Assembly: GCA_050740315.1 (NCBI GenBank)
Contig: JBOIDC010000006.1
Coordinates: forward strand, 2,596-66,595
Reading direction: 5' to 3'
DNA from: Gammaproteobacteria bacterium
GTDB taxonomy: Bacteria > Pseudomonadota > Gammaproteobacteria > JACCYU01
Length of the DNA stretch: 64,000 bases
In this document: positions 4,873 to 53,624 of the stretch, in pieces
Position numbering within the stretch: the stretch's first letter is position 1
Layout of the letters: every line of letters begins with the position of its first letter
Position numbers and translations under genes: made by a program
The notes under the pieces: model-generated
What the model was told of the DNA's origin: nothing
Databases searched by the model: none
The model's input: the letters and a program-made list of their open reading frames with translations, nothing else

Positions 4873-5033
4873 GGTATAACTCGTCGCTGGGGTCATCACT
4901 GATACCCATACTTATACCAACTATTGCATGGATGTCAACGGACTATCTTGGACGCGGACGGAAGCCTAAGTCACTGAGATTCTAGCTTTTACGCTAGTGC
5001 ATGGACTTGCTTGGATTACTGCGGAATATAATG

Positions 5034-5109
5034 TGGTGGAGCTAGGCGGGATCGAACCGCCGACCTCCTGCATGCCATGCAGGCGCTCTCCCAGCTGAGC
5101 TATAGCCCC
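5034..5109 (-). tRNA. tRNA-Ala (anticodon GGC)
   Basis: Reverse complement reads GGGGCTATAGCTCAGCTGGGAGAGCGCCTGCATGGCATGCAGGAGGTCGGCGGTTCGATCCCGCCTAGCTCCACCA. G3:U70 Ala identity pair, anticodon loop ATGGCAT, T-arm GGTTCGATCC, CCA encoded. Confidence 0.9.
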
Positions 5110-5411
5110 ACGAGCGGAATCGGCATGCTAAGTGGCGCTCGTCGGTGTGTCAACCCAACGAGCCTCGCGGCGGACCCGCTTTAGCCCGCGCTCGCGACAT
5201 CATCCAGGCTTTGCGCACAAGGCGCTTGCGGCGTCAAAAGCTGCCTGCTGTCAGTGTCATGAATCGCGCACCACCGTCTGCTGGCGCGTGGGCGATCCGC
5301 CATGCAGCATGCTATCCTCGACGTGGGCAGGCACGCAGTTTTGCGCTTGCTGAAGGCATGCGATCCTGGCACAGCGGGGTTGACGTTCAGCCATGAGGCC
5401 AGAACAAAGTA

Positions 5412-34897: not shown

Positions 34898-37102
<2,205 letters not shown>

Positions 37103-37148
37103 TCACCTGCTTTGTACGCCGCGCATCCGCGGCTACCCATAGAATTTT

Positions 37149-38264
37149 TTATTTGCCGCGCTGCCTTAAGCGCAGCGGATCGTAAAACGGCGGCTTCCAC
37201 ACGTGCGCCGCGCAGCTTACGTTCGGCCCGCGCACCTCGACCGCGGTTCCGCGCGCGGTGTACTCGAGTTTGATGTGAACGAGCGCCAGCGATTGCATCA
37301 GAAATCGACTGTACGCCGGCGTGGTCACCACACCGATCTCTTCTCCATCCTTGAACAGTTTGGCGCCTTCTTCGATCGCGCGGTCGCTGTCGCAGATAAT
37401 TCCGGTTTGTCTGATCCTTTCCTTGCCGTGCTTGTCCTGCAGCGCCTGCTTGCCGCGAAACTCGCGCGCGTTCAGATCCACCGCCCAGTCCATGCCGACT
37501 TCCCAAGGTGTGGTGTCGCCTTCGGGCATATCGAACGGATAGAACAGCAGACCGCCCTCGACGCGGCACAAGTCCAGACAGGTGAACGAGCACGGCATGA
37601 TGCCGAACTTCTCGCCTCGACCGAGAATGGTGTCCCACAACGCCACCGCGTCCCTCGACGCGCAGAAGATCTCGTAGCCGCGTTCATGCGAGTAGCCGGC
37701 GCGCGAGATCGACACCGGCTTACCGAAAAGTTTCGTAGTCTGGTGGTGGAAATACGGCAACGTGGCCAGCTCCATCTCAGCAAAGGATTCGAGCAACGCC
37801 AGCGCTTTCGGTCCCTGTACCGACAGCACGTGTACGTCGTCGTCGTTTGCGATCGTGACGTCCTTGCCTTCGGCGATCTCCCGCATCACCGTCTCGGCGT
37901 CGCCGTCGCCGTGGGTGGCGCGGTATTCGTCCGGGCCGTCGCGGTACACCAGAAAATCATCGGTGAGCGCGCCCTGCTCGTTGCACACACAGCCCAGCCG
38001 CGATTGCCCCGGCTCGAGTCTGGACATGTCCGCGGCCTGCATCGCGTTCAGCACGTCAAGCGCATCCGCACCCTTGATTTTGATTACCCGCAGACAACTT
38101 ACGTCCCACAGCCCCACGCGCGCGCGTACGGCCACGTGCTCGTCGTCGGGATCGGTGTGGTATGACCACGGCACGCCCATGTTCCACAGCGGCTGCTCGA
38201 AGCTGGCGCCCAGGGCCTTGTGTCTGCCATAGAGCGCGTTGGGTCTCAGCTCGCTCTCGCTCAT
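37149..38264 (-). CDS. GcvT-like aminomethyltransferase (folate-binding) family protein
   Basis: GcvT fold pattern (VGLWDVSCLRVIKIKG..., C-terminal barrel). First gene of the operon. Confidence 0.7.
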   Translation of the reverse strand: MSESELRPNALYGRHKALGASFEQPLWNMGVPWSYHTDPDDEHVAVRARVGLWDVSCLRVIKIKGADALDVLNAMQAADMSRLEPGQSRLGCVCNEQGALTDDFLVYRDGPDEYRATHGDGDAETVMREIAEGKDVTIANDDDVHVLSVQGPKALALLESFAEMELATLPYFHHQTTKLFGKPVSISRAGYSHERGYEIFCASRDAVALWDTILGRGEKFGIMPCSFTCLDLCRVEGGLLFYPFDMPEGDTTPWEVGMDWAVDLNAREFRGKQALQDKHGKERIRQTGIICDSDRAIEEGAKLFKDGEEIGVVTTPAYSRFLMQSLALVHIKLEYTARGTAVEVRGPNVSCAAHVWKPPFYDPLRLRQRGK

Positions 38265-38515
38265 CGCGTACTCCTGGTTTATGAACTTTCACCCGCGATC
38301 GCGGCGGCTTCAAACGCCGGCTGCGCGTATCGGCCGAATGGGACTAAACTCTGGGCGTCGCCAAAGTTTCCTGCATGATCGTCCCGGCGCGTTCGGAGCG
38401 TCAATCGCACGGAAGATGTACTCCCTAGGGAGTAAGCACGGGCACGGGAAGGTTTGCGCCGGCTGTGCTAATTTCTACGTAAGGATTTCTGTTATACAGC
38501 AGCTTGGGGCAGTCG

Positions 38516-39277
38516 ATGATCGAAGGCGTGTTGCTGGACTTGAGCGGCGTGCTCTACGTGGGCGACGAGCCCCTGGCCGGCGCGCATGAGGCGATACAAC
38601 GTCTGGCCGGGGCACGCGTCCCCGTGCGCTTCGTCACGAACACGACGCGCAGCCCGCGCGCCGCGATTCTGGACAAGCTCGCACGCATGCGGTTTCCGGT
38701 TTCCGATGAAACGCTTTTCACCGCGCCGCAGGCCGCGGCGGCGTACGTCGAGAAATCGAATCTGCATCCGTATCTGCTGATCCACCCCGACCTGCGCGGC
38801 GAGTTCACCGCGCATCCGCCGGAGACCTGGGATGCGGTGCTGGTCGGCGACGCGGGCGCCGATTTCACCTACGAAAACCTGAACCCGGCATTCCGGGTAA
38901 TACTCGACGGCGCGCCGCTGCTGGCGATGGGCTACAACCGCTATTTCAAGGAACCCGACGGCTACAGCCTGGATATCGGCCCGTTCGTGGCCGCGCTGGA
39001 ATTCGCCGCCGACGTGCACGCCAAAGTGCTGGGCAAGCCGGCCGCGGAATTCTTCAAAGCCGCGGTCTCTGAGCTGGGCTGCGAGCCGCAGCACGCGGTG
39101 ATGGTCGGCGATGATGCGGAGGCCGACGTCGGCGGCGCGATCGCCGCCGGATTGCAAGGCATGCTCGTCCGTACGGGTAAATACCGGGAGGGCGACGAAG
39201 ACAAGATCGACCCGCGTGCTGTTAACGTCGCCGACATCGGCGCCGCGGTCGACTGGATCCTCGCGAATCGGGCTTGA
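38516..39277 (+). CDS. HAD-IIA family hydrolase
   Basis: DLSGVLY (motif I), VTNTT (motif II), GKP...MVGDD (motifs III/IV). Confidence 0.7.
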   Translation: MIEGVLLDLSGVLYVGDEPLAGAHEAIQRLAGARVPVRFVTNTTRSPRAAILDKLARMRFPVSDETLFTAPQAAAAYVEKSNLHPYLLIHPDLRGEFTAHPPETWDAVLVGDAGADFTYENLNPAFRVILDGAPLLAMGYNRYFKEPDGYSLDIGPFVAALEFAADVHAKVLGKPAAEFFKAAVSELGCEPQHAVMVGDDAEADVGGAIAAGLQGMLVRTGKYREGDEDKIDPRAVNVADIGAAVDWILANRA

Positions 39278-39385
39278 GGTCAAGGGGTAGCCGCCATCGT
39301 TGGTCAACTGGCGCGCGTTACCGGGCACGCGCCACGGGCGCGGCAAGAGGCTTACGCCCCATTGCGTGGGCGCACACCGCATCGC

Positions 39386-40087
39386 TTATTCCCGCGCCTG
39401 CAACCGGTATCCAACACCCGGCTCGGTGAGTATATATCGCGGGTCGCTGGGATCGTCGTTGAGCTTCTGACGCAGACGCTGAACGATGATGCGCAGGTAA
39501 TGCGTATCCTCCATGTGAGCCGGGCCCCAGATCTCCCGCAGCAGCTGAGTCTGCGTGACGACCCTGTTCTGGTATTTGAACAGCAGCATGAGGACGGCGA
39601 ATTCCCTGCGCGTAAGACGTACATTTTGTCCGCGAACCGTGACGCGTCGCTGGCCGAAATCAACGTGCAGGTAGCCATCATCGTAGGTGCCGCTCGCAGC
39701 GCCGTCCGGTATTCCTGCTCGCAGCAGATTACGCACGCACGCCAAAAACTCCTGCATCCCGAAGGGTTTAGCGCCCTTGTCCAGCGCCTTGACCTTCTCG
39801 CCCTCATCGGCGCGTACCGAGAGAATCATTACCGGGACGGAAGACCAGCCACGCAGTTCCGCCAGCACTTCCTTGCCGTCCATGCCGGGCAGGCCCAGAT
39901 CGAGCACTACCAGATCCGGCGACTGGGTCGCGGCCAGCTCAAGGCCCTGCTCGCCCGTACCTGCCTCGACGACCTCGTAGCCTTGACTCGCGAGACTGAT
40001 GCGCAGCAAACGCCGGATCTGGGCCTCGTCGTCGATGACCAGAATGCGCGCCGCGGGTTGCGCTGGGTTACGGGTTGCCGCGCCCAT
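39386..40087 (-). CDS. kdpE: KdpE response regulator (OmpR family)
   Basis: REC (RILVIDDEAQIRRLL...VLDLGLPGMDG) plus winged-helix output domain. Downstream of kdpD. Confidence 0.8.
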   Translation of the reverse strand: MGAATRNPAQPAARILVIDDEAQIRRLLRISLASQGYEVVEAGTGEQGLELAATQSPDLVVLDLGLPGMDGKEVLAELRGWSSVPVMILSVRADEGEKVKALDKGAKPFGMQEFLACVRNLLRAGIPDGAASGTYDDGYLHVDFGQRRVTVRGQNVRLTRREFAVLMLLFKYQNRVVTQTQLLREIWGPAHMEDTHYLRIIVQRLRQKLNDDPSDPRYILTEPGVGYRLQARE

Positions 40088-42797
40088 TATTGACAGGTTC
40101 GTCAGACGCGCCCGGCGGCTCGTGCAACGGCAGGTGTATGGCGATGGTCGTGCCTTTCCCATTGCGTCCGGCCAGCGCCTCGATGCGCCCGCCGTGCGCG
40201 CCGACCATGCCGTGACAGATGGCGAGGCCGAGCCCGCTGCCGTAAGGACCCTGGTCGCTGCCGCCGCCCGTGAAGAACATATCGAAAACCTGGCGCCGCT
40301 GCGCTTCCGGGATGCCGGGCCCCTGATCGGTCATGGTGATGAGCAAACCTTCATGGTCGCGCCGGGCAGTGATGCGCACCTCGCCGCCCCTGGGCGAGAA
40401 CCGTGCGGCATTCTCGATCACGTTGACCAGCGCCTGCTCGATGAGCGCCGGGTGCGCATAGAGCAGCGGCAGATCGTCCTGGATATCGCGCACCACTTTG
40501 ACCTCGGTGAACAGCTCGCGTGTGCGCCGCAGCGCCGAGGCGACGACATCCGCCACCGCCACCCAGTCGCGTTGCAGCTTGAGTCCGCCGTGCCCGAGAC
40601 GCGTCATGTCCAGCAGATTCTCGATATATCGATTCAGGCGTTGGCCTTCGGAGAGCACGGCGTCCAGCAGTTCTCGTTTATCCTGTTCGGAGAGTTGCGC
40701 TTCAAGTTCCTTGAGACTGCTGGCCGAGCCGATCATGCTCGATAGCGGCGTGCGCAGATCGTGCGAGACTGACGACAACAGCGACGAACGCAGCCCCTCG
40801 GTCTCCTCGGCGACCCTCGCCTGTTCCAAGCTGGAAGTCAGCCGGGTTCGCGCCAGGGTAAGCACAACCTGGTTTGCCAGCGCGTCCAGCAGCAGGAGTT
40901 GCTCCGGCGGGGCGCGGTTCGGGAGCGCCGCGAGCTTGACGCCGAGCACGCCGTAGCATGTTTCATCGAGATCGAGCGGCAGGAAGCGCCAGCCGACGCT
41001 GGTCAGGGTGTCGCTCTGATAGCCGCTCACGCGCGCGTGTTTGTACGTCCAGTTCGCTGCCGCGCGTTCCTTTTCCTCCAGCGCGATGGGTTCCGGCGCC
41101 GCCGCGACGATATCCAGCCCGTTATCCGCCGGATCCATAACCAGCAGGCAAACGGGTGCGTGTTCAAAGGCCGCGATGGTCTCCACGGCCGCGCGCCGCA
41201 CCGCGTTCGGCTCCGGCGCCTCGGCGAGCTTCTTGTTGAGCGTGAGCAGCATCTGACTCTGATCGTTGGTTGCGCGCAGGGCGGTAAGCTGTGCGCGCAG
41301 GCGGGTCGCCAGATTGCCGCCGATGATCGCCATGACCAGAAAGAAGAAAACACTCAGGATCTCGCCCGTGTCATGAATGCGAAAAGTAAGCCGTGGTTCG
41401 GTGAAGAAGAAGTTATACGCAAAAAAGCTGATGCCTGCCGCCGCCAGTGCGGGCGCCAGCGAGGTGCGCGCCGCAACGATCAGCACGCCGGTCAGGAAAA
41501 CGAGGGACAGATTCGGCAGCGGTAGCGGGAGCAACTGCTCCAGCAGGATCGAGACCAGCACGCACAGCACCACCACCCACGCGGCCAGAACATAATGCCC
41601 GACCGGCGTGCGGCGCAGCGCCTCCATCCACCCCTCCCAGCGCCGCAGAAGCGCAGCCGGCTGCTCGGGTTCGGAACCGATCACCGTAATCTCAAAGTCC
41701 GTGTTGTGACGCAGCAGCTTCTGCGTCAAGGTGCGGCCGAGCACGCCCGCCAGCGGCCGCTCGCGTGTGCGGCCGATGACGATCGCCGACGCGTTCCGCT
41801 CGCGGGCGTAGCTGAGAATCTCCGCGTCGATGTAAGCGCCGCGCAGCGTTACGGTTTCGCCGCCCAAGCGTTCGGCGAGCTGGAAGGCGCGATCGAGCGT
41901 CGCCTGCGTCGCCGGATTGCGCACCCGTCCGGTGTCGACGAAGACCACTGTCCATGGCGCGCGCCGGCGCTCGGCGAGCCGCTTGCCGGCGCGCACCACT
42001 TGTTCGGAATTGCGTCTGCCGTCAATGGCGACGACGACCCGGTCGCGCGCCGGCCACGGGCCTTGTTTACCGTGGCGCTGCATGGCTTGGCGCAGGTCCG
42101 CATCGACATGCGCCGATGCGGCCGCGAACGCCATCTCGCGCAGCGCCGTGAGATTGGAAGGATTGAAATAACCCTCAAGCGCCGGACGCACTTGCTCGGG
42201 CACGTAGACCTTGCCACGCTCCAGCCGCTCGATGAGCTCGCGCGGGGTGAGATCGATCAACACGATGTCGCGCGCCTGTTCGAGCAACGAATCGGGCACG
42301 GTCTCGCGCTGTCGGACGCCGGTGATCCTGGCGACCGTGTCGTTCAGGCTCTCCACGTGCTGAACGTTGACCGTGGTCCAGACATCGATCCCCTGAGTCA
42401 GAATCTCCTGAATGTCCTGATAGCGCCTGGGGTGACGCGTGCCCGGAATATTCCGGTGCGCCAGCTCGTCGACGAGCACAATGTGCGGCTTGCGTTCGAG
42501 CACCGCATCGAGATTGAACTCTTTGAATACACGATCTCGATACGTCACCGGCAACAGGGGCACGTGTTCCAGACTTTCGCACAGCGCCTCAGTCTCACGG
42601 CGTCCATGACTTTCGATCACGCCGATGACGATGTCGTGGCCTTCCCGATGCGCTTCCAGCGCCGCGAGCAGCATGGCGTAGGTCTTGCCAACACCCGGCG
42701 CGGCGCCAAGGAAAACCTTGAGGCCGCCGCGCTGCTCGCGCGCCAAGCCCGCGAGCAGCGCGTCCGGGTCGGGGCGATTATCTTCCGGTCTTGCCAT
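40068..42797 (-). CDS. kdpD: KdpD sensor histidine kinase
   Basis: N-terminal KdpD domain with P-loop GAAPGVGKTYAML. USP domain, 4 TM segments, HisKA (SHDLRTPL) and HATPase_c. Confidence 0.85.
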   Translation of the reverse strand: MARPEDNRPDPDALLAGLAREQRGGLKVFLGAAPGVGKTYAMLLAALEAHREGHDIVIGVIESHGRRETEALCESLEHVPLLPVTYRDRVFKEFNLDAVLERKPHIVLVDELAHRNIPGTRHPRRYQDIQEILTQGIDVWTTVNVQHVESLNDTVARITGVRQRETVPDSLLEQARDIVLIDLTPRELIERLERGKVYVPEQVRPALEGYFNPSNLTALREMAFAAASAHVDADLRQAMQRHGKQGPWPARDRVVVAIDGRRNSEQVVRAGKRLAERRRAPWTVVFVDTGRVRNPATQATLDRAFQLAERLGGETVTLRGAYIDAEILSYARERNASAIVIGRTRERPLAGVLGRTLTQKLLRHNTDFEITVIGSEPEQPAALLRRWEGWMEALRRTPVGHYVLAAWVVVLCVLVSILLEQLLPLPLPNLSLVFLTGVLIVAARTSLAPALAAAGISFFAYNFFFTEPRLTFRIHDTGEILSVFFFLVMAIIGGNLATRLRAQLTALRATNDQSQMLLTLNKKLAEAPEPNAVRRAAVETIAAFEHAPVCLLVMDPADNGLDIVAAAPEPIALEEKERAAANWTYKHARVSGYQSDTLTSVGWRFLPLDLDETCYGVLGVKLAALPNRAPPEQLLLLDALANQVVLTLARTRLTSSLEQARVAEETEGLRSSLLSSVSHDLRTPLSSMIGSASSLKELEAQLSEQDKRELLDAVLSEGQRLNRYIENLLDMTRLGHGGLKLQRDWVAVADVVASALRRTRELFTEVKVVRDIQDDLPLLYAHPALIEQALVNVIENAARFSPRGGEVRITARRDHEGLLITMTDQGPGIPEAQRRQVFDMFFTGGGSDQGPYGSGLGLAICHGMVGAHGGRIEALAGRNGKGTTIAIHLPLHEPPGASDEPVNNGRGNP

Positions 42798-43552
42798 CGC
42801 TCATAACAGTCTCAATCAGTCATCTACTCATCGCCTTTTTCTTGTTGGCCAAACGCGCGGTCTTGCGACTGTTCCTCACCGAACTTCTGCTGAAATTCGC
42901 CCCGCGCAGAACCGCGGCGGCGACTCTACGACTCGTGGCGCGCGGCCTCGTCCGGATCGAGGGCGGATGACACGGTATGGTCGTCAGGTTGAATTTCGTT
43001 ATGAGTGAGGTCCGCTCGTATGAATCGGGATCGACGCAGACGTGAATGGAACTGTCTTCTACCTCAGCAGGTATCAGCGAACCTTCCGTCAGTTTGAATT
43101 TTTTTATCATGTCCGGCCTCGGAGAAGTTGTACTTGATGATAATGGCACGTTTGGGCGCAGTCATAGCTCGATACGGCAGCTTATGACGCAGGCGCGTAA
43201 AAACGCTACTGCGAATTGAATGTAATCGCGTAAAAGTTTCGTAAAAGGCCGCGTGGCGGCCAAGGTTTAAGGAGACCACGCGGCTACTGGGCAAGGAGGG
43301 TTGGAGTTCTGATTGAGAGAAATGCGAGCCTGGCCCCTTGTGCCCTGCTCGTGACCCTGTGAGTGCCCAGCCACAAGACTGGTAACCGGCCGTCCAGCGT
43401 GACGGGAGCATGTGGGCTTTGTACGCCGGGCCGCGCCAGCCCGCAAACTACAATTCTCGTATTGACGTATCAGCTCTGTGCGCGTTCGAGCTTCCCCCGC
43501 GAGACCCTGCCATGTATGATTGTCCGTAAATCAGACAATCAGGCAAAGCATC

Positions 43553-43852
43553 ATGGAAACCAGCAAGGTCGGTAAGCGCGGAACGGTAGTGGTGCCCGCC
43601 CGTCTGCGTCGTAAGTTCGGTATCGAAGAAGGTTCTTTGGTGATCGCCGAAGAACGTCAGGACGGCATCTTGATTCGTCCCGCCATGGCGCTCCCGATCG
43701 AAATGTATAGCGCGAGACGCAAGGCGGAGTTCCTGCTTTCGAATGCGGTCGATGCCGAAGACTATAAAGCCGCCGTGGACGAAATCAAGAAAATGGGGTT
43801 GCGTGTATCGGATATTCCACACCACAAGCCGACGCGCGGCAAGCGTTCTTAG
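43553..43852 (+). CDS. vapB: AbrB/MazE/SpoVT-family antitoxin (VapB-like)
   Basis: METSKVGKRGTVVVPARLRRKFGIEEGSLVI is the swapped-hairpin beta-barrel motif. Directly precedes the PIN gene. Confidence 0.7.
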   Translation: METSKVGKRGTVVVPARLRRKFGIEEGSLVIAEERQDGILIRPAMALPIEMYSARRKAEFLLSNAVDAEDYKAAVDEIKKMGLRVSDIPHHKPTRGKRS

Positions 43853-44260
43853 ATGGATCGGATCTTCCTGGACGCCAATGTTCTCTTTTCCGCGGCGTAT
43901 CGAGCCAATGCCGGGCTGACTCGATTATGGACGGCCGATGTGGAGTTGCTGACTTCTCGTTACGCGATTGAAGAGGCAAGGCTTAATCTTGCAGAAGAGA
44001 TCCAACGAGATCGCCTGGAAAAACTCCTGCGCAATGTGCGCGTGGTAGCGGAGCTTACGTCGGCGCCGCTGCCCCAAGATATCGATCTGCCGGAGAAGGA
44101 TCGTCCCATTTTACTCGCGGCGATGGCCGCTAAAGCAAGCCATTTGGTGACCGGTGACAAACAGGATTTCGGGCGCCATTTTGGCAAGAGATTGGGTGGC
44201 GTCCTTGTCTTGCCGCCTAGTGAATACCTCAACCGCGCGGCCGGCCGGAACAAATCTTGA
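43853..44260 (+). CDS. vapC: PIN-domain toxin (VapC)
   Basis: IFLDANVLF...TGD acidic PIN residues. 135 aa. Confidence 0.7.
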   Translation: MDRIFLDANVLFSAAYRANAGLTRLWTADVELLTSRYAIEEARLNLAEEIQRDRLEKLLRNVRVVAELTSAPLPQDIDLPEKDRPILLAAMAAKASHLVTGDKQDFGRHFGKRLGGVLVLPPSEYLNRAAGRNKS

Positions 44261-44405
44261 GCGCGCGACGCCTCGGCTCCCGGCAACGTCGCCTGACCTG
44301 TTGCGAGCACGCGCGGCATGCGTGACAATCTCGCGCGGATTACATCCAGTCGCACGCAATGACAAAAAGCTCACCGTGCACTGTGTTTCATCCCGGCTAC
44401 CGGCT

Positions 44406-44978
44406 CTATTGACGCCTTATCGCGTCCAAAGCGAGATTGAGCTTAAGCACGTTGACCCGCGGTTCGCCGAGTAGCCCCAAGGTACGGCCCTCGGTGAATT
44501 CGGCAACGATCTCGCGCACCCGCTTCTGCGGCAGACCGCGAGCGCGCGCGACGCGCTGCACCTGAAACTCGGCCGCCTCGGGCGAGATGTGCGGGTCGAG
44601 GCCGCTGCCGGATGCGGTAACCAGATCCACCGGCACCGAGCCCGCCTGTGGGTTCTCGGCGCGCAGCCGCTTGGCCTCGGCGCGAATTCTTTTGATCACA
44701 CCCTTGCTGGTCGGGCCGAGATTCGAACCGCTGGATGCCGCGGCGTCGTAGCCGTCGCCGGCGGCCGATGGGCGCGGGTGGAAATACTGATCGCCCGTGA
44801 AGGCTTGCCCAGTCAGTCCCGAGCCGATGATCTTGCCATCGCGCTCGATCAGGCTGCCGTTCGCCTGATCAGGGAAAATGAGTTGCGCGACGCCGGTCAC
44901 GGCAAAGGGATAGATGAGGCCGGTGATGACGGTCAGACCTAAGATCATCACGAGGGCGGGACGGATATGGTTTGACAT
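44406..44978 (-). CDS. kdpC: K+-transporting ATPase subunit C
   Basis: Single N-terminal TM segment plus KdpC periplasmic domain (…[26 protein letters not shown]…). Confidence 0.85.
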
Positions 44979-45130
44979 AGCTCAAATCTCCGAAAGCTCT
45001 GGTCAATTCAGAAGCTTGTCATGCCGGTGTAAACCGGCATCCAGTAAAACCAATGTTTCAACTGGATTCCGGCGTGCGCCGGAATGACGAGGAATGCCAG
45101 GATTTATTGCTCGGGCCCTCATGACACGTA

Positions 45131-46960
45131 TCACGCAAGGCCGATGGCATTGACGAGCAGGTCGATGACCTTGATGCCCGCGAAGGGCACGGCCAGACCG
45201 CCCAGGCCGTAGATCAGCACGTTACGCCGCAGCAGACCGGCAGCACCAGTGGCTTTGTATCCCACACCGCGCAAGGCAAGCGGAATCAGCACGATAATGA
45301 TCAGCGCATTGAACATCACCGCCGACAGAATTGCGCTTTCGGGAGTGGCCAGCCCCATGACGTTCAGCGCCGCCAGCTGCGGATAGAAACCTAGAAACAT
45401 TGCCGGATGATGGCGAAGTACTTCGCCACGTCGTTGGCGATCGAGAACGTGGTAAGCGCGCCGCGGGTCATCAGGAGCTGCTTGCCGATGGCCACGACCT
45501 CGATGAGTTTGGTGGGATCGCTGTCGAGATCGACCATGTTGCCGGCCTCGCGCGCGGCCTGCGTGCCCGTCTGCATGGCGACACCCACATCGGCCTGCGC
45601 GAGGGCCGGCGCGTCGTTGGTGCCGTCGCCGCACATCGCCACCAACCGGCCCTCGGCCTGCTCCTCGCGCAGCAGCTTGAGCTTTGCCTCCGGCGTGGCT
45701 CCTGCCAGATAGTCGTCCACCCCCGCTTCGGCGGCGATGGCGGCTGCGGTCGTCGCATTGTCGCCGGTGATCATGACCGTGCGGATGCCCATGCGGCGCA
45801 GCTCGGCGAAGCGTTCCTTGATGCCGCCTTTCACAACGTCCTTCAGGTGCACCACGCCCAGCAATCGCCCTCCCCTGGCCACGGCCAGCGGCGTGCCGCC
45901 CGACCTAGCGATGCGTTCGGCGGTTTGCTGGATGTGGCGGGACTCCGCCGTTTCGGCTCGGGGATTGGTTCGCTGGCCCACGTGAGCCAGTACGGCGTCG
46001 ACCGCGCCCTTGCGGATCTCCTCGCCCGCGAGGTCAACGCCGCTCATTCGCGTCTGCGCGGTAAAGGGCACGAAGCGCGCCTTCAGGGATTTCATGTCGC
46101 GGCCCCGGATGCCGTATTTATCCTTGGCGAGCACGACGATGGATCGACCTTCCGGCGTCTCGTCGCTCAAGGACGAGAGCTGGGCCGCGTCGGCCAGTTC
46201 GCGCTCCTCCACACCTGGCAGCGGTATAAACTCGGTCGCCTGGCGGTCGCCCAGGGTCACGGTGCCGGTCTTGTCGAGCAGCAGGGTGTCGATGTCGCCC
46301 GCGGCCTCCACCGCGCGTCCGGAGCTGGCCAGCACGTTGAACCGCACCAGCCGGTCCATGCCGGCGATGCCGATCGCCGACAGCAGCGCGCCGATCGTGG
46401 TCGGGATCAGGCACACGAACAGGGCGATCAGCACCACCGCCGGCACCACGCCGCCGGCATAACTCGCAAGGCTCGGGATGGTGACGACCGCCAGCAGGAA
46501 GACGATGGTGAGCCCCGCCAGCAGGATATCCAGCGCGATCTCGTTCGGCGTCTTTTGCCGCTGCGCGCCTTCGACCAGGGCGATCATGCGGTCCATGAAG
46601 GTCGAACCGGCGCCCGAGGTGATGCGCACCTTGATCCAGTCAGAGATCACCAGGGTGCCACCCGTCACGGCCGAACGATCGCCGCCACACTCACGGATCA
46701 CGGGCGCCGATTCGCCGGTGATCGCCGCCTCGTTGACCGACGCGACACCGTCGATCACCTCGCCGTCTCCCGGGATCAGGTCGTTGGTCTCGACCAGCAC
46801 CACGTCGCCGACCTTCAGCTCGGGCGCGGGGACTTGATCGAAGCGGTCCGAATCGCTGGCTGCGAGGCGCTTGGCCATGGTCTCGCGGCGCATACGGCGC
46901 AAACTCGCGGCCTGCGCCTTGCCCCGCCCTTCGGCGACGGCCTCCGCGAAGTTCGCAAAC
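45131..46960 (-). pseudogene. kdpB: K+-transporting ATPase subunit B, disrupted (5' deletion plus 1-bp frameshift)
   Basis: P-type ATPase motifs ([19 protein letters not shown]). Frame breaks at about 45415, where atcatccggcaatg reads in place of the expected ...atcatcccggcaatg... (FAIIPAMF). The first roughly 65 residues are absent. Confidence 0.7.
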
Positions 46961-46974
46961 ACATCTCGCTCAAG

Positions 46975-48344
46975 CCGTGCGGGCCGGCATTCAGCGGACT
47001 CGCCAGGGCGACCGGCGTGATGCTGGAGATGGCGAGGAAGCCCAATAGCGACAGCGGCAGGATCAGCACGGCGAGCATGGTCATCTTGACCTCTCTGGCC
47101 TCGATCTTCTTGCCGACATACTCGGGCGTGCGCCCGACCATGAGGCCCGCGATGAACACCGCCAGCACGACGAACAGCAGCATGCCGTAGAGGCCGGCGC
47201 CGACCCCGCCGATGATGATCTCGCCCAAGAGCATGTTGACGAGCGGCACGAGCCCACCCAGCGGCATGAAGCTGTCGTGCATGGCATTGACCGCGCCGCA
47301 CGACGCCGCCGTGGTAACGGTGGCGAAGAGCGCCGACAGCGCGGGCCCGAAGCGGACTTCCTTGCCCTCCATGTTGCCGGCGGCGATGTCCACGCCCAAC
47401 GGCGCCATCAGCGGATTGCCGGCGGCTTCGGCCCAATACGCGATGGCCACCCCGGCGACGAAAATAATGCCCATCGCGGCGAAGATCGCCCAGCCCTGGC
47501 GTTCATCTTTGACCATGCGGCCGAAGGTGTTGGTCAGTCCCGCGCCGATCGCAAAGATCAGCACCATCTGCACGAGGTTCGTCAGCGGCGTCGGATTCGT
47601 GTACGGATGCGCCGAGTTGGCATTGAAAAATCCCCCACCGTTGGTGCCCAGCATCTTGATCGCTTCCTGCGAGGCGTTGGGTCCCTGGGCGATGACCTGC
47701 GTGGCGCCCTCGACCGTGGTGGCCGTGACGTAGTCGCTCAGATTCTGCGGCACACCTTGCCAAACCATGAACAAGGCAACAACAAACGAGATCGGCAGCA
47801 GCAGGTATAAGGTGCCACGCACGAGATCGGCCCAGAAGTTGCCGATGCCCTGGACCGAGCGGCGCGCGAAGCCGCGGATGAGCGCCACCGCGAGCGCGAT
47901 GCCGGTCGCCGCGGAGACAAAATTCTGCACCGTCAGCCCCATCATCTGCGTCAGGTAGCTCATGGTGCTCTCGCCCGCATAGGCCTGCCAGTTGGTGTTG
48001 GTGGTGAAGCTCACGGCGGTGTTGAAGGCGAGATCCGGGTCCACCGCCGCGAAGTCCTGGGGATTCAGCGGAAGCACGCCTTGCAGCCGTTGCAGCGCAT
48101 AGAGCAGCAGGAAGCCCGCGAGATTGAACAGCAGCATGGCCATCGCGTAGCGCGTCCAGTGCTGCTCTTCGTTCGGATCGATACCGGCCAAACGGTAAAG
48201 GCCGCGCTCGATCGGCGCGAGCACCGGCCATAAAAACGTCCGCTCGCCCGCGAACAGGCGCGTCATGTAGCCGCCCATCGGTTTCACCAGGGCGACGATG
48301 ATCGCGCAGAAAAGCGCAATCTGGAGCCATCCGTTGAAGGTCAT
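46975..48344 (-). pseudogene. kdpA: K+-transporting ATPase subunit A, 3'-truncated by an internal deletion that fuses it out of frame to kdpB
   Basis: KdpA sequence in frame to ...[10 protein letters not shown] (about residue 457 of an expected 560) directly abuts the kdpB codons for ...VFANFAEAV (about residue 66) in another frame. Confidence 0.65.
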
Positions 48345-48353
48345 CGCAACGCC

Positions 48354-48446
48354 TCAAAGCTGTTCTGGTCGCAACAGCGCGTAGATGAGATAGACGAGCA
48401 GCACGACCGCTACCAGCCCGCCCAAGACGTAGTCGAAGATCAGCAT
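48354..48446 (-). CDS. kdpF: KdpF small hydrophobic subunit
   Basis: MLIFDYVLGGLVAVVLLVYLIYALLRPEQL, 30 aa, immediately upstream of kdpA. Confidence 0.6.
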   Translation of the reverse strand: MLIFDYVLGGLVAVVLLVYLIYALLRPEQL

Positions 48447-48989
48447 GTCAACCTCACAGTCGGTCGCAGGCCGCGACGTAGGCCATGAAGGCCGCGAAAA
48501 AGGCGAGCCCAAGTGCCAGCACGATCAGATCAAACATTGAAATCTCCTTCTCAACACGGCGAATACAAGGCCAGAAAGATCGCGATGCCGACGAGCGCCA
48601 TCACCAACTTCGCCGGGCGCGGCAGATGATCGGACAGGCCATCACTGGGGAGGGATAGAAACAGGGACACGGCACTCCTTGATCAGCCAGCGTGCGCATT
48701 GGCGCATGTGGCCGTCGGATTAGAGTCACGCCGCGTAAAAGCGCTATATCAAAACGGGCTGAGGCGCATAAAAATTGCGTAAAGAAGTGGCGGGCAGAGC
48801 GACGAAACGGGGCGCGATTACGGTTGATGACGTCACCGCGGCGGTGACAAATGCCGTGCCGCTACGCGCTCACCCCCATCCCACCTTCCCCCTCAAAGGG
48901 GGAAGGAGGCTCATGGTCGTTGGGAGCACATTATGCAGCAACGAACTTTGCCTTGAGGCGAGGGATTTCTTCCATCCCCGATGAGGACA

Positions 48990-51131
48990 CTACTCCGCCC
49001 GCGTCACTTCCACGAGATTATCGTTGTAAGTCGGCGCGTGGCCCATGTTGACGAACGCGTTGGAGCTCACGCAATTCACCGAGCCGTCGCCGCGGTTCCG
49101 GCTGCGCCAGTAGCCTAACGTCGCGACCACCACACCCGCGTTCACGTCGTCGGTGATCCGCGCCTGCGCCTGAAAGCCGCCGCGGTCGTTGAAGACCTTC
49201 ACCCACTCCCCTTCCTCGATGCCGCGCGCGGCCGCGTCGGCCGCGTTGATCAGCACGAACTGCGCCCCCTGACCGTTGACCTTCTTCGCCTCGTTGGCGT
49301 AGCAGGAATTCAGAAAGCCGTGACTCTTGGGCGAGACGATGTTGAGCGGGAATCTCTGCGCAAGCGCCGGGTCGTTGTGCGCGTTCTCTCTTGGCGGCAC
49401 GTAGCCGGGCACCGGATCGATGGGCTCGCCGCCCTGCTCTGCTTCGTACATCTGCCGGAACGTCGGCGCCACGAAGTTGCCGTTCGCCGCCAGACTGGAT
49501 ACCAATTCGCACTTGCCGGACGGCGTCGGAAAATTACCTTTCTGGTGCGGCGTACGATTGTCGGGCGCGCCGTTGTTCAGATGCGCGTAGCCGCGGCTCA
49601 GGAAAGTCTCCATGGTGATGCCCTGCATCTGCGGCGCGCTCCAGTCCACGTAATGTTCGATCATTTCCTTATCCGAGCGCTTGAACTGCGCATCGTCGAA
49701 GCCGAACATGGCGGCCAGCCGCCGGAAGATCTCGGTGTTCGACGCGCACTCGCCCTGCGGTTCGATGGCTTTCTGGTTCAAAGTCCAGTAAAAATGCCCC
49801 CAGGAGAACATCATGTCGTCGTGCTCGCCGGCCATGGTCGCGGGCAGGATGACATCGGCATACGACGCGGTGTCGGTGATGAAGTGCTCGGCGGCGACGG
49901 TGAACAAATCCTGGCGCGCGAGGCCTTGCGCGATCTTGTCGGTCTCCGGCGCCTGCGACATCGGGTTCGCGTTATAGACCATCAGCGACTTGATCGGCGG
50001 ATCGAGCTTCAATTCGCCGGTGAGCGCGGCGCCGAGCTGCAAGGTATTGACCACCCGCGTGCCGGGCTTGATCCACTCGGGACGGCACACGCGATCCCAA
50101 TGCGCGGGAAATTCCCAGATCGGCATCTGCAACAGCCCGCCGCCCACGTGCCGCCACGCGCCCGTCAGCGCCGGAATGCAGCACACGGCGCGGATGGTCT
50201 GGCCCCCGCCGGCGGAACGCTCCAGCGCCACGCCCAGGCGAATCACCGAAGCCCCGGCGCGATGGAACTCGCGCGCTAACGCGCGGATGTCGTCCGCGGC
50301 CACGCCCGTAATCTTCTCGGCGTTCTCCGGCGTGAACTCGCGCGCGCGTTCTTTCAATTGATCGAAACCGACCGTGTATTTCTCGATGTAATCGTGATCC
50401 AGCAGGTCTTCGTTGATCAGCACGTTGATGAACGCCATGGCGAGCGCGCCGTCGGTGCCGGGCCTGGGCGCGATGTGCCAGTCGGCCTCTTTGGCCGTAC
50501 GCGAACGGAAGGCATCGATCACGACCACCTTGGCGCCGCGCTTGTGGGCTTCGCGGATGATGCGCCAGTGATGAATGTTGGTGCTGACGCTGTTGCAGGC
50601 CCACAGCACGATGTATTTCGAATGAACGAAACTCTCCGGATCGACGCCGCCGGTCGGGCCCACGGTGAGCAGCCACGCGGTGGATGAGCCGGACGCGCAG
50701 AACGTTTTCTCGCACACCGTCGCGCCCAGCCTGTTGAAGAACGCGTCACCCACGGTCAGGCCCTGCAACAAGCCTTCGTTGCCGAGATAGTTGTAAGGCA
50801 GGATGGCCTGCGCGCCGTGCTGGTCAATGATCTCCGTCCAGCGCCGCTTGATCGTGGTCAGCGCCTCGTCCCAGGTGATGCGCAGGTACTGACGGCTGCC
50901 CTTGGGCCCGTTGCGCTTGAGCGGATACAGCACGCGCTCGGCGTTGTAATGATGATCGTGATAATCCTTGAGCTTCACGCACAGGCTCCCATGCGTGAAC
51001 GGATGATCGGGATTGCCGCGCACCTCCACCAGCCGCCCGTCTCTTACCTTGTAAAGCATCGAGCAGGTGTCCGGGCAGTCGTGCGGACAACCGCCAAAGA
51101 AGGTTTGTTCCAGAGGTGTCGCGGTCGCCAT
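48990..51131 (-). CDS. molybdopterin-dependent oxidoreductase (MopB superfamily, single subunit)
   Basis: N-terminal 4Fe-4S CPHDCPDTC...C. MopB domains. 713 aa. Confidence 0.75.
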   Translation of the reverse strand: MATATPLEQTFFGGCPHDCPDTCSMLYKVRDGRLVEVRGNPDHPFTHGSLCVKLKDYHDHHYNAERVLYPLKRNGPKGSRQYLRITWDEALTTIKRRWTEIIDQHGAQAILPYNYLGNEGLLQGLTVGDAFFNRLGATVCEKTFCASGSSTAWLLTVGPTGGVDPESFVHSKYIVLWACNSVSTNIHHWRIIREAHKRGAKVVVIDAFRSRTAKEADWHIAPRPGTDGALAMAFINVLINEDLLDHDYIEKYTVGFDQLKERAREFTPENAEKITGVAADDIRALAREFHRAGASVIRLGVALERSAGGGQTIRAVCCIPALTGAWRHVGGGLLQMPIWEFPAHWDRVCRPEWIKPGTRVVNTLQLGAALTGELKLDPPIKSLMVYNANPMSQAPETDKIAQGLARQDLFTVAAEHFITDTASYADVILPATMAGEHDDMMFSWGHFYWTLNQKAIEPQGECASNTEIFRRLAAMFGFDDAQFKRSDKEMIEHYVDWSAPQMQGITMETFLSRGYAHLNNGAPDNRTPHQKGNFPTPSGKCELVSSLAANGNFVAPTFRQMYEAEQGGEPIDPVPGYVPPRENAHNDPALAQRFPLNIVSPKSHGFLNSCYANEAKKVNGQGAQFVLINAADAAARGIEEGEWVKVFNDRGGFQAQARITDDVNAGVVVATLGYWRSRNRGDGSVNCVSSNAFVNMGHAPTYNDNLVEVTRAE

Positions 51132-51353
51132 GCTGCCTCCTGATTATTGTATAGGGCCTTGAACGGATCAGTGGTTCTTACGCCCACGCCTCGCCGGTGT
51201 CAACAGGATTGGCTAGCGGCGGGAGCTAATCCGCCAGGACAGGGACCCCTCTTAATAGCGACTATGCGCAATCCGAAAGACTAGTCTCTATTTTTTAGCG
51301 CGAAGAGGCTCAGAACGTTGCGGTTTTTCCGTTACCCTCCCCGGTATCACAAT

Positions 51354-52337
51354 TTACCCGTTTCTTATTGCCCATGACGACAGCGACTTTCGGCGCTCGC
51401 GAGGCGAGATTCCGAATCTCCGCCGGAAGCTGCGGCTGAAATGGGCGACATCGCTGAACCCCCAGGTGAAAGCGATTTCCGTAATGCTTTGGTTGCCGGT
51501 GCTTGGGTCGCCAAGCGCCCGCTCACACGCGTCGAGTCGCCGCGCCCAGATCCAGCGGTCGAGCGTGGTTGCCTCCGGCTGGAATACCTTGTGCAGGTAG
51601 CTAGGAGACAATCCAAGATCGCGGGCGATCGTGCTGACCTTAAGCTCGGGGTCGTCAAGGTGCGCGATCACGTAAGCCTTGATACGCGCCACTTGTTTAT
51701 CGCTCGATCTCGCAGCCGGGAGATCCATATCGCGCAGGGCGCGCAATTCGCCGACAAGCACGCCCAGTAGGCCATCCGCGATATCCAACGCGACGCCAGG
51801 ATGCCACGATCCGCCCTCATCGCAAACGGTATGCACCATCTGCAGCAACATCCGGGCCGGCCCGTCCGCAGCCGGAGCCGTTATTGCCGTAAGTGTCTCG
51901 CAGCCTCTTAACCGCGAGGCCAATGTCGGACGCGGTATTCTAAGTGTGATCAGCTGGTAATCCTCGTCCATTACCAGCTCGTAGGGGCGCGTGCTGTCAG
52001 AAAGCACGAACTCGCCCGGATTCACAATCGCTTCGCGCCCATCCTGATGTAAACGGGAAACGCCTTTGAGTTGAAGGCAGACGAGAAAGAAATCCTCGGC
52101 TGACCTGGCGATCTGCCGGCGCGAACGCGTGATTCGCTTAGCAAAGTGTGCCACGGCGAGAACCTGGGTCAGTGAAAGCATCGCGAGGTCCCGATGCAGT
52201 ATCGAGCCCGTAAATTCGTCGCGGTTGAAGATGCGGAAATCCAGTTCGACCAACCGATCGCTAGCGGCCTCTTTCCAAGCCGCCAAGCGCTGACCCGGCG
52301 GCACGTTTAGGGTGGAAAATCTCTCGGCGCATCCCAT
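51354..52337 (-). CDS. AraC-family transcriptional regulator
   Basis: C-terminal AraC HTH (ITEIAFTWGFSDVAHFSRSFRRRFGISP). Divergent from the ABC transporter operon. Confidence 0.75.
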   Translation of the reverse strand: MGCAERFSTLNVPPGQRLAAWKEAASDRLVELDFRIFNRDEFTGSILHRDLAMLSLTQVLAVAHFAKRITRSRRQIARSAEDFFLVCLQLKGVSRLHQDGREAIVNPGEFVLSDSTRPYELVMDEDYQLITLRIPRPTLASRLRGCETLTAITAPAADGPARMLLQMVHTVCDEGGSWHPGVALDIADGLLGVLVGELRALRDMDLPAARSSDKQVARIKAYVIAHLDDPELKVSTIARDLGLSPSYLHKVFQPEATTLDRWIWARRLDACERALGDPSTGNQSITEIAFTWGFSDVAHFSRSFRRRFGISPRERRKSLSSWAIRNG

Positions 52338-52510
52338 GTTTTCTCCTTGAGCAAAGTGGACTCTCGATCAACGATTGATTCACTACCGAACAAGAACGTT
52401 CGGTGGCTGCCGTTTACGCTAGGGCCTGTTTCTGGGGCATGGTTTATACCATCGCATGCACAACTCGTGATCTCGGCCTTTCCCAAAAATTATCCAATTT
52501 ACTTACGGCG

Positions 52511-53584
52511 ATGGCAAACCGCTTGAGAAGGAGGCAACTGCTTGTTGCTAGACCCCGTGGCGGTGTAGTAGAAGGCACTCCACCCACTGGCCGTCGGACG
52601 TCTGTCTTGCGCATTCGGGAAGGGTTTGCACGCTTCGGTCAAGAACAAACCGTCGTGCTGATCGCCGTGATGCTGGCAGTTGTTTTCGCCATCATGCTGC
52701 CCGATTTCGTCTCTTGGGGCAACGCCATGGCGCTGTTCCGCAGCGTGTCCGTCTTGGGCGTGCTCGCGCTCGGTATGGCTTTAGTCATGATCGGCCGCGG
52801 CATCGATCTATCGCAGGTCGCGATCGCCCTGGTCTCCGCGGGAACTGCCGTCAGCTTAATGATCAATGGTATCGCCATGCCCATCGCGCTTCTTGCAGGA
52901 TTTGCGACCGCGCTCGGCTCAGGCACGCTCAATGGCGCCATCATCGCGTATCTCGAGGTGCCTCCGCTATTAACGACCCTGGCGAGCGCATTCCTCTTTA
53001 TCGGTATTGCCCGCGTGTGGCTGTTTGATTCAGCAATCATCAGTGTTCCGGCAGACAGCGCGGCCATTCTAGCGCTCGGGCAGCAATGGCTGGGTGCGCC
53101 CGTTCCGCTGATTGTCTTCATCGTGTGCGCGCTCGTTGTGCACCTGTTCTTGTCGCGCACGGTGCCCGGACGCTTCATCTACGCCCATGGCGACAACGCA
53201 GAGGCTGCCCGACTGTCCGGGCTTCCGGTGCATGGCATTACCCTGCTCGAATACAGCATGTCCGCCATCATTGGCTACGTCGCCGGTCTGCTCATGATCG
53301 CTTCGACTGCAATGGTCGACCTAAACACCGCCAACTCAACCTTGATCTTCGAAGTGATTCTGGTCGTGATCCTGGGCGGCGTAAGCCTCGCAGGCGCGCG
53401 TGGAAGCGTCGGGAGTGTACTGGCGGGCACGCTGCTGATCGGTGTGCTGCTGAACGGCATGATCCTGATGGACTTGAGTTATCAGCTCCAGAACATCATC
53501 ACGGGCGGCGTGCTCTTGATCGCAATCGTGTTGGACAGCTGGCTTCATCCGCGTGATGAAGAGACAGCTCGGCAAGGCGATTAG
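52511..53584 (+). CDS. sugar ABC transporter permease (CUT2/RbsC-like)
   Basis: About 10 TM segments with the RbsC-type pattern. Start uncertain; listed ORF begins at 52403. Confidence 0.65.
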   Translation: MANRLRRRQLLVARPRGGVVEGTPPTGRRTSVLRIREGFARFGQEQTVVLIAVMLAVVFAIMLPDFVSWGNAMALFRSVSVLGVLALGMALVMIGRGIDLSQVAIALVSAGTAVSLMINGIAMPIALLAGFATALGSGTLNGAIIAYLEVPPLLTTLASAFLFIGIARVWLFDSAIISVPADSAAILALGQQWLGAPVPLIVFIVCALVVHLFLSRTVPGRFIYAHGDNAEAARLSGLPVHGITLLEYSMSAIIGYVAGLLMIASTAMVDLNTANSTLIFEVILVVILGGVSLAGARGSVGSVLAGTLLIGVLLNGMILMDLSYQLQNIITGGVLLIAIVLDSWLHPRDEETARQGD

Positions 53585-53624
53585 TGTTATGGGTTGCTCT
53601 TCCAATTAAGAAACAGGAGATTCC

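Follow-up and report, generated by a model that had tools for sequence, protein, structure and literature searches.

A probably mosaic and mostly non-functional kdp locus in an uncultured gammaproteobacterium

The subject of this report is a kdp locus in a 64 kb window (the whole stretch of DNA that was analysed, taken from contig JBOIDC010000006.1 of assembly GCA_050740315.1), in which it occupies positions 39386-48537 of the minus strand. The locus is probably a mosaic and mostly non-functional. In other words, the 3' third of kdpC, a corA-family gene, kdpD and kdpE would be native to an uncultured gammaproteobacterium, the pump genes would be imports of an alphaproteobacterial type, and the assembled locus would then have decayed. 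Judged from its reading frames, no Kdp-ATPase can be made from this locus. The evidence comes from metagenome assemblies throughout, compared at the assembly level. Comparison loci are referred to by names of the form L###; L085 and L086 are the nearest intact pump loci, and L131 (JGI 3300025721) is the closest full-length relative.

The host is a gammaproteobacterium, because the NCBI protein records of the window (MGH8501369-78, on a contig of 70,075 nt) are named "MAG: ... [Gammaproteobacteria bacterium]" (MAG, metagenome-assembled genome) and because the molybdopterin oxidoreductase gene adjoining the locus shows 87% nucleotide identity to gammaproteobacterial MAG contigs. The named best matches of KdpD are likewise all from Gammaproteobacteria, with Nitrococcus at 71-73%, Salinisphaera at 66%, and then Thiocapsa, Marinobacter, and Halomonas at 50-60%. 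In L131, KdpD is 88% and KdpE 74% identical to the proteins of the window, and kdpDE aligns at 83% nucleotide identity over window positions 42803-39402 (3.4 kb). The pump proteins have other relatives. The best 120 matches of KdpA show 74-81% identity, and most of the few named ones are alphaproteobacterial (Bradyrhizobium, Dongiaceae, Hyphomicrobiales, Stellaceae, and Rhodospirillales). The best of them, L085 (81%), lies on a 311 kb contig that encodes GcrA. Against the gammaproteobacterial relatives L125-L128 and L131, identity is 39% for KdpA, 58% for KdpB, and 49-53% for KdpC. Among the other 31 loci, pairs whose KdpA proteins are 78-84% identical have KdpD proteins that are 62-83% identical, whereas the corresponding values for the window and L085 are 81% and 43%. 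L131, L125-L128, and L130 have one common KdpB type (80-95%) that is congruent with their KdpD similarity; therefore, by parsimony, the pump replacement would have taken place in the window's own lineage. Relaxed selection was considered as a cause of the low identity of KdpD and KdpE to the alphaproteobacterial loci, but a KdpD with complete domains and 88% identity to its counterpart in a gammaproteobacterial relative speaks against it, and the idea was rejected.

Further evidence for a mosaic comes from kdpC, an open reading frame (ORF) of 190 codons (44406-44978, minus strand) that itself reads as a recombinant. About 145 codons at its 5' end are of the alphaproteobacterial type and about 45 at its 3' end of the gammaproteobacterial type, with a predicted crossover near 44550 (~44546-44555). 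In a codon alignment, the first ~430 nucleotides (nt) are 62-81% identical to alphaproteobacterial loci and 33-67% identical to L131. Over the last 135 nt, identity to L131 rises to 81-83%, as high as for kdpDE, and identity to the alphaproteobacterial loci is 57-68%. Informative sites, defined as those where three alphaproteobacterial loci agree with one another and differ from L131, divide 78:21 (alpha:gamma) to the left of nt ~430 and 5:19 to the right of the break (Fisher 2e-7, for a breakpoint chosen post hoc), and the last 11 of them are all L131-like. The homology to L131 runs 14 nt beyond the kdpC stop codon, to 44392. KdpC, with 0 departures at 25 near-invariant columns, and KdpF are both intact, though kdpC is recombinant.

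These findings bear on the view taken by the initial annotation, that a single vertically inherited kdpFABC-DE operon is decaying in place, with a vapBC toxin-antitoxin (TA) pair inserted between adjacent kdpC and kdpD genes and with KdpDE left as an intact orphan. Such an operon is an improbable explanation. The kdpA and kdpB lesions and the position of vapBC that it invokes are real, and kdpC and kdpD are separated by 35-460 nt in most kdp loci. However, vertical descent of the whole does not fit KdpD and KdpE being 43-45% identical to those of loci whose KdpA is at 81%, and KdpD being 88% identical where KdpB is at 58%, nor does it fit a recombinant kdpC and a KdpE that lacks an invariant segment. 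Furthermore, a corA-family remnant common to the window and L131 shows that kdpC and kdpD were already apart.

A second concern is that the mosaic or its lesions might have been created by assembly or sequencing. Assembly GCA_975322995.1 (contig CDICQX010000155.1) matches window positions 40628-54260 with 41 single-nucleotide polymorphisms (SNPs) and 0 indels, and it shows zero differences across 42737-50162. The Logan assembly of SRR27067773 is 100% identical to the window over 37077-46371, so that three assemblies agree without an indel. The first of these contigs spans both boundaries of the imported block and every pump lesion, and the Logan contig spans the kdpC crossover, the kdpB frameshift, the corA remnant, and the kdpE deletion. 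Because the other assemblies carry the lesions without indels, random assembly or base-calling errors do not explain them, and the possibility of misassembly or indel errors at the two pump junctions, raised in the initial annotation, is not upheld. An artefact could still be imagined as a chimeric contig in which alphaproteobacterial and gammaproteobacterial DNA were joined at conserved kdp sequence, with or without indel errors, given that all assemblies are metagenomic, that the crossover falls in a conserved part of kdpC, and that one of the lesions affects a single nt of a short run of C. This is very improbable. Gammaproteobacterial DNA lies on both sides of the alphaproteobacterial block, which would require two switches; the two types of kdpC share only 55-70% identity around the crossover, which is less than k-mer chimeras would need; and CC versus CCC is not the kind of homopolymer in which errors are common. 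On its left, the block begins somewhere between 48540, where the L085 homology starts, and 48990, where the gammaproteobacterial-type oxidoreductase gene ends.

The SNPs themselves are unevenly spread. Thirty-two of the 41 are packed into 40641-40899 (kdpD codons 633-719), at the very start of the GCA_975322995.1 contig, where divergence is ~12% and 27 of the changes are synonymous; 7.4 kb of nearly identical DNA follows directly. Either recombination brought in a tract from a diverged strain, or the end of that contig mixes strains. At the conserved Arg668 of KdpD, the window allele has Gly and the GCA_975322995.1 allele has Arg. Eight further SNPs are synonymous and lie in the molybdopterin oxidoreductase gene. 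No literature was found on SRR27067773, GCA_975322995, or CDICQX01.

The largest lesion in the pump genes joins kdpA to kdpB. The kdpA frame is open from 48344 to codon 461, ending at 46962 (46962-48344, minus strand), and this fragment is 81% identical to the intact 569-residue KdpA of L085 (P0002), with ~109 C-terminal codons gone. At the junction (46961-46962), which coincides with a break in the blastn alignment, kdpA codon 461 runs directly into kdpB codon ~78, with the frame off by one base. Past this point, the KdpA frame continues for 48 codons into kdpB sequence and stops at 46815, and the kdpB frame becomes legible from 46968. The kdpB fragment (45131-46961, minus strand; E. coli residues 77-682) lacks a start codon, transmembrane helix (TM) 1, and most of TM2. 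Both proteins are incomplete when aligned to those of E. coli, a check that the initial annotation had proposed. KdpA (PDB 6hra_A, 557 residues) is matched to residue ~455 only (E = 8e-149), with ~456-557 absent, and KdpB (682 residues) is matched from residue 77 (E = 4e-216). In the window, KdpA homology stops at residue 460/461, short of the ~560 residues and four pore repeats of a full KdpA. The out-of-frame deletion fusion described in the initial annotation is thus real, with its junction placed at 46962|46961, and the loss is larger than the ~0.5 kb first estimated. The deletion is put at 0.6-0.8 kb, because the junction corresponds to L085 positions 11383|12167, which leaves 783 nt missing, because 832 nt are missing in a blastn comparison with L086, and because the loss would be ~575 nt if the ancestral kdpA-kdpB spacer was short, as in L005. 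This spacer measures 225-300 nt in L085 and L086. In both of these loci, the breakpoints fall in similar motifs, TTCACCGAGATGCT in kdpA and TTCACCGTGCTGTT in kdpB, and the join could share TG. A deletion through short homology between these motifs is plausible, the microhomology being reconstructed without a close intact relative. No intact KdpA of more than 81% identity was found among 5.8 billion proteins.

The remaining part of kdpB carries a lesion of its own. The initial annotation had noted a 1-nt deletion near 45415; it is present and can be placed at 45405-45406 (minus strand), in the Pro codon of ...YFAII-P-AMF. The window reads ATCATCC-GGCAATG against ATCATCCCCGCGATG in L085 and L086, a difference of CC versus CCC. 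The frame shifts at KdpB residue ~592 and meets a stop four codons downstream, and with one C added back KdpB reads through to its normal C-terminus. Of the features of a full-length KdpB, the protein's own start and seven TM helices are not all present; the P-type motifs (TGES, DKTGT, TGDN, and GDGTND) survive. Programmed frameshifting was considered and rejected, since the start codon and the first 76 codons are also gone.

The pump genes otherwise show little sign of drift. Of 191 near-invariant columns in the kdpB remainder, 2 show departures, both conservative; for the kdpA fragment the count is 3 of 183, where intact homologues reach 4. Because departures at near-invariant columns are few and the P-type motifs survive, the inactivation appears recent relative to the divergence from any sampled relative. 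Close sister genomes were sought to date the lesions; GTDB species representatives reach at most 68% KdpC identity. It is conceivable, if rather unlikely, that the cassette was dead on arrival, in other words that an alphaproteobacterial-type cassette already deleted and frameshifted at transfer destroyed a working native pump. The near absence of excess change at conserved sites of kdpA, kdpB, and kdpC is what such a transfer would leave, but it fits a very recent inactivation equally. The exchange of a working pump for a dead one would need neutrality or hitch-hiking. The independent decay of corA and kdpE here and of kdpD and kdpE in L125-L128 suggests that Kdp was already dispensable in this clade, so that either order of events is possible.

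Decay extends to the regulator. The initial annotation regarded both KdpD and KdpE as intact, and this holds for KdpD. The kdpD gene is an open ORF of 909 codons of gammaproteobacterial type (40068-42797, minus strand) with a complete domain set (PF02702, Usp, DUF4118, HisKA, and HATPase_c, all above cut-off) and an H-box of SHDLRTPL. It shows no lineage-specific indels relative to 113 homologues, and it has 5 departures at 186 near-invariant columns, as many as are seen in 12 of these 113. It does not hold for KdpE. The kdpE gene is an open ORF of 233 codons (39386-40087, minus strand) with a 15-nt in-frame deletion at 39769/39770, where the window reads GCT-AAA-CCC and L131 reads GCT-AAC-GAT-TAT-GTC-GTC-AAG-CCG; in addition, a conserved Arg is changed to Cys. 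The deletion removes NDYVV, just before the KPF motif, from a segment (GA[DN]D[YF]xxKPF) that E. coli KdpE and 59 of 59 homologues compared carry ungapped. As a result of the five missing residues, the receiver is incomplete; its Pfam match ends at profile position 95 of 111, and Trans_reg_C is intact. In receiver domains, the deleted segment is strand beta-5, which bears the aromatic switch residue and belongs to the alpha4-beta5-alpha5 dimerisation face. KdpE function is likely to have been lost.

Other lesions are found in a sister lineage, L125-L128 (GCA_020063985.1, ERZ27252444, GCA_013695765.1, and SRR6263736), whose KdpD is 86% identical to that of the window. There, kdpD has an in-frame deletion of residues ~514-831 that removes HisKA and most of the catalytic domain, and kdpE is frameshifted. 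KdpB and KdpC look intact.

The interval between kdpC and kdpD has a history of its own. It spans 1608 nt, from the kdpC stop codon (44406-44408) to the start of kdpD (42797). The GC content is 49-57% in this interval versus 62-70% in the kdp genes, which bears out the AT-richer composition that the initial annotation reported. What it described as a spacer, however, is the promoter region and the first 60 codons of a corA-family gene, frameshifted. Window positions 43246-42937 are 81% identical (258/319) to L131 positions 4931-5249, which hold the upstream region and codons 1-60 of a 334-residue CorA protein (PF01544, 108 bits). The remnant and its upstream region occupy 42820-43246 (minus strand), and a 96-codon ORF (orf96, 43110-42820) is what is left of the gene. 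It has suffered a 1-nt deletion at 42985/6. In L131, the corA-family stop codon lies 20 nt before kdpD. In the window, 133 nt then remain before kdpD versus 845 nt in L131, and at least 0.7 kb has been deleted. At the protein level, orf96 has no other homologue among 5.8 billion proteins and no Pfam match, and it lacks the full ~300-residue CorA domain with its C-terminal TM helices. An interpretation of orf96 as an ORFan was dropped on account of its DNA homology to the L131 corA gene. The last ~30 codons of orf96 align with CorA in a collinear but weak manner (tblastn E = 0.05), and the DNA alignment is no better than that of shuffled sequences; a C-terminal corA remnant in this tail is a possibility. 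L129 retains a CorA C-terminal remnant directly upstream of kdpD. Because the window and L131 have the corA-family gene or its remnant in common, the separation of kdpC from kdpD appears to be older than vapBC. Thus, the placement of an opposite-strand vapB-vapC pair at 43553-44260 is confirmed, but its insertion between adjacent kdpC and kdpD genes is not, since L131 has a corA-family gene and other DNA between them.

The vapBC genes lie in a lineage-specific insert of 1145 nt (43247-44391), which is defined by blastn homology to L131 that breaks at 44392 and resumes at 43246. The insert interrupts no coding sequence. At the same position, L131 has two hypothetical ORFs and a DDE transposase (L131 2545-4930). 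No target-site duplication or terminal inverted repeats were found at the insert flanks, only short repeats at chance level, and a comparison of the 1.6 kb interval with plasmid records gave one weak AbrB match only. The vapB-like antitoxin gene (43553-43852, plus strand) has 99 codons and an AbrB/MazE/SpoVT fold (PF04014, 44 bits; TIGR01439). Its stop codon is abutted by a vapC-like PIN_3 toxin gene of 135 codons (43853-44260, plus strand; PF13470, 32.2 bits against a cut-off of 27). Most of 38 related loci from metagenomes have the two genes paired, with identities of 45-69% (55-69% for vapB), and never adjoining kdp genes. In an alignment of 32 family members, the toxin keeps D7, EEA, KD, and GD, and a conserved His is replaced by Asp in GDxxHFG. 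No relative of the toxin was found in PDB by sequence, and PADLOC defence models gave no matches to vapB, vapC, or orf96. Judged by domains, pairing, and acidic PIN residues, vapBC is an intact type II TA pair with predicted activity. A palindrome, GATTGTC-N9-GACAATC, at 43508-43550 (plus strand) immediately precedes the vapB start codon and might serve as an operator for VapB.

In L129, a Phd/PIN TA pair lies between kdpB and the CorA remnant, and further Phd/PIN, MNT/HepT, and TacA/TacT pairs lie nearby. Insertions seem to have landed repeatedly in the interval ahead of kdpD.

How are kdpD and kdpE transcribed in such a locus? The E. coli KdpE site is TTTATA-N5-TTTACA (PMC3264566). A pattern of TTTAYR-N5-TTTAYR, framed after the sites had been seen and including the published E. 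coli site, has exactly 2 matches in the 64 kb window versus 0.04 expected from dinucleotide shuffles. One (TTTACG-N5-TTTATG, 48767-48783, minus strand) lies ~230 nt upstream of the kdp operon, and the other (TTTACG-N5-TTTACG, 43229-43245, minus strand) lies 119-135 nt upstream of the corA remnant. L131 has TTTACA-N5-TTTACG at the homologous position (4932), and similar boxes occur upstream of kdp in L006, L007, and L008. A promoter-like site is present at 43165-43137, within the conserved block upstream of corA. Because of this conserved upstream region, its KdpE-box-like repeat, and the promoter-like site, the most plausible source of kdpDE transcripts is the corA promoter, controlled by KdpE. 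The arrangement suggests that the CorA-family gene is under KdpE control in this clade. In the window, both sets of structural genes behind KdpE-box-like repeats are dead.

Together, the observations suggest the following history of the mosaic locus. The 3' third of kdpC, the corA-family gene, kdpD, and kdpE would have descended vertically with the gammaproteobacterial relatives. A block of alphaproteobacterial type, comprising a small upstream ORF, kdpF, kdpA, kdpB, and the 5' two-thirds of kdpC, would have replaced the resident pump genes by recombination, with its right-hand crossover within kdpC. The deletion between kdpA and kdpB, probably between short similar motifs, cost KdpA its last pore repeat and KdpB its beginning, and the separate 1-nt deletion cuts KdpB ahead of its last TM helices. 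On the native side, the corA-family gene has been cut down to its frameshifted 96-codon remnant, and kdpE has lost five invariant receiver residues. The vapBC insert of 1.15 kb would have entered an interval between kdpC and the corA remnant that was already variable, and kdpDE would probably be read from the conserved corA promoter region with its KdpE-box-like repeat.

Several points weigh against this history. Every source is a metagenome assembly, and the window and the Logan contig may share reads. The gammaproteobacterial-type 3' end of kdpC was recognised from one locus, L131, with a breakpoint chosen post hoc, and the left boundary of the imported block is located only to 48541-48989. 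No close donor is known, the nearest intact KdpA being 81% identical. The label "alpha-type" reflects nearest neighbours and a few names rather than a formal phylogeny, and one named match, at 75%, is acidobacterial. Sequence is the only basis for the effect ascribed to the five-residue deletion in KdpE, for the presumed corA promoter use, and for the KdpE boxes. The imported cassette might have arrived already broken. No second kdp copy was found within the 64 kb window; another kdpFABC could exist, as the rest of the genome lies outside it, and the sensor may or may not be orphaned, as the initial annotation suggested that it was.

A wider reading joins these observations with those from related loci and is put forward tentatively, as an idea that may well be wrong. 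In the Nitrococcus-related clade, a resident corA-kdpDE unit would be autoregulated via a KdpE box, whole kdpFABC cassettes would be exchanged beside it by recombination within kdpC, and the seam would be a recurrent landing site for PIN-toxin TA modules and insertion sequences (IS). The window would then represent a failed exchange followed by decay of the pump, corA, and KdpE. If this is true, the response to K+ limitation would gain an undescribed member, a channel of the CorA family controlled by KdpE.

The clade may have exchanged its cassettes more than once. L129 (Nitrococcus sp. MAG GCA_030452265.1, 1-9564) has the gene order kdpA-kdpC-kdpB, and its KdpB is discordant, with 57% identity to L131 versus 69% for KdpD.

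Upstream of kdpA lie kdpF and a further small ORF. The kdpF gene is intact, with 30 codons (48354-48446, minus strand; PF09604, 37.7 bits; TIGR02115, 35.5 bits). Directly upstream of it lies a conserved hydrophobic ORF of 27 codons (MFDLIVLALGLAFFAAFMAYVAACDRL; 48454-48537, minus strand). Among 45 kdp loci, about 22 have a homologous peptide ending in C-[DE]-[RK]-L at this position; they come from several phyla (Alphaproteobacteria, Acidobacteriota, one cyanobacterial MAG, and one Clostridia MAG). The peptide matched no Pfam or NCBIfam family; 15 short proteins match it in a library of 1.84 billion proteins, the best with E = 2.5e-6. The ORF may encode an undescribed small protein of the kdp operon. 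Between kdpB and kdpC, a spacer of 152 nt (44979-45130, minus strand) holds three perfect hairpins, and its predicted RNA fold has an energy of -56.5 kcal/mol (z = -4.1). Palindromic, GC-rich spacers unrelated to this one are present at both kdpA-kdpB and kdpB-kdpC in L085 and L086, and L005 has none. No further copies of the hairpin spacer were found in the window. These spacers are probably repetitive extragenic palindromic (REP)-like intergenic elements. Rfam and tRNA scans gave no match inside the kdp locus.

Two observations concern the surroundings of the locus. Homology between the molybdopterin oxidoreductase gene (48990-51131) and its counterparts in L132-L137 stops exactly at the gene ends, and the neighbouring genes differ on both sides, which points to extensive local rearrangement around this gene in the clade. 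Near the window start, an int-alpA RNA (71 bits to Rfam RF02996) and a tRNA-Ala(GGC) gene are ~2.4 kb apart (2598-2667 and 5034-5109, both on the minus strand), which suggests an integrated mobile element.

The findings have consequences for annotation. In this locus, kdpA and kdpB are pseudogenes, the hypothetical ORF beside kdpD is a corA remnant, and kdpE deserves a label of probably defective. High-affinity K+ uptake by way of this locus should not be assigned to the organism. Because related lineages carry different lesions (in kdpD and kdpE in L125-L128; a corA remnant and another TA pair in L129), the data suggest that Kdp is dispensable in the habitat of this clade. For evolution, the locus offers a compact worked example, in which a xenologous transporter cassette stands beside a resident regulator, the crossover is mapped within a gene, and the parts decayed independently. 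Knowledge of how Kdp works is unchanged.

How does the locus compare with known systems? It resembles the E. coli Kdp system in its gene families and their order, and in the full domain set of KdpD, and it has KdpE-box-like TTTAYR-N5-TTTAYR repeats (PMC3264566). It differs in that the last ~100 residues of KdpA, residues 1-76 of KdpB, and five receiver residues of KdpE are gone, and in that KdpB has a frameshift at ~592. Furthermore, 1.6 kb of DNA separates kdpC from kdpD, the ancestries of the pump and sensor genes differ, and an extra 27-codon ORF precedes kdpF. In Caulobacter, independent expression of kdpCDE has been suggested (PMC8552747). In Francisella tularensis SchuS4, kdpA and kdpE are pseudogenes and kdpD is retained (PMC6584805). 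The two cases are alike in the piecemeal inactivation of kdp and in a sensor gene that outlives the pump, the regulator, or both. However, Francisella is a pathogen restricted to its hosts, its pseudogenes are spread over the whole genome, and its kdp locus was inherited vertically, whereas the window comes from an environmental MAG and has a xenologous pump cassette with a TA pair and a corA remnant inside the locus.

The closest comparison is with the corA-kdpDE arrangement of related MAG contigs, in which the upstream region and the KdpE-box-like repeat are conserved. As in L131, where corA is intact, and L129, where it is a remnant, kdpD starts 20-22 nt past the corA stop codon. The window differs from L131 in keeping only the promoter region and ~60 frameshifted corA codons. 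At the position taken by vapBC in the window, L131 has an IS transposase and two hypothetical ORFs, and L129 has a Phd/PIN pair. The vapBC pair resembles type II VapBC modules in its abutting small genes with the antitoxin first, in Pfam matches that pass the gathering scores, in a palindrome upstream of vapB, and in the conservation of the module. Its toxin differs in belonging to the PIN_3 subfamily, with nearest relatives at ~61%, and the insertion carries no mobile-element signature. Pseudogenisation, xenologous replacement, and TA insertion in a variable zone are all familiar; their combination with an intragenic crossover makes the locus a tidy example of ordinary gene decay.

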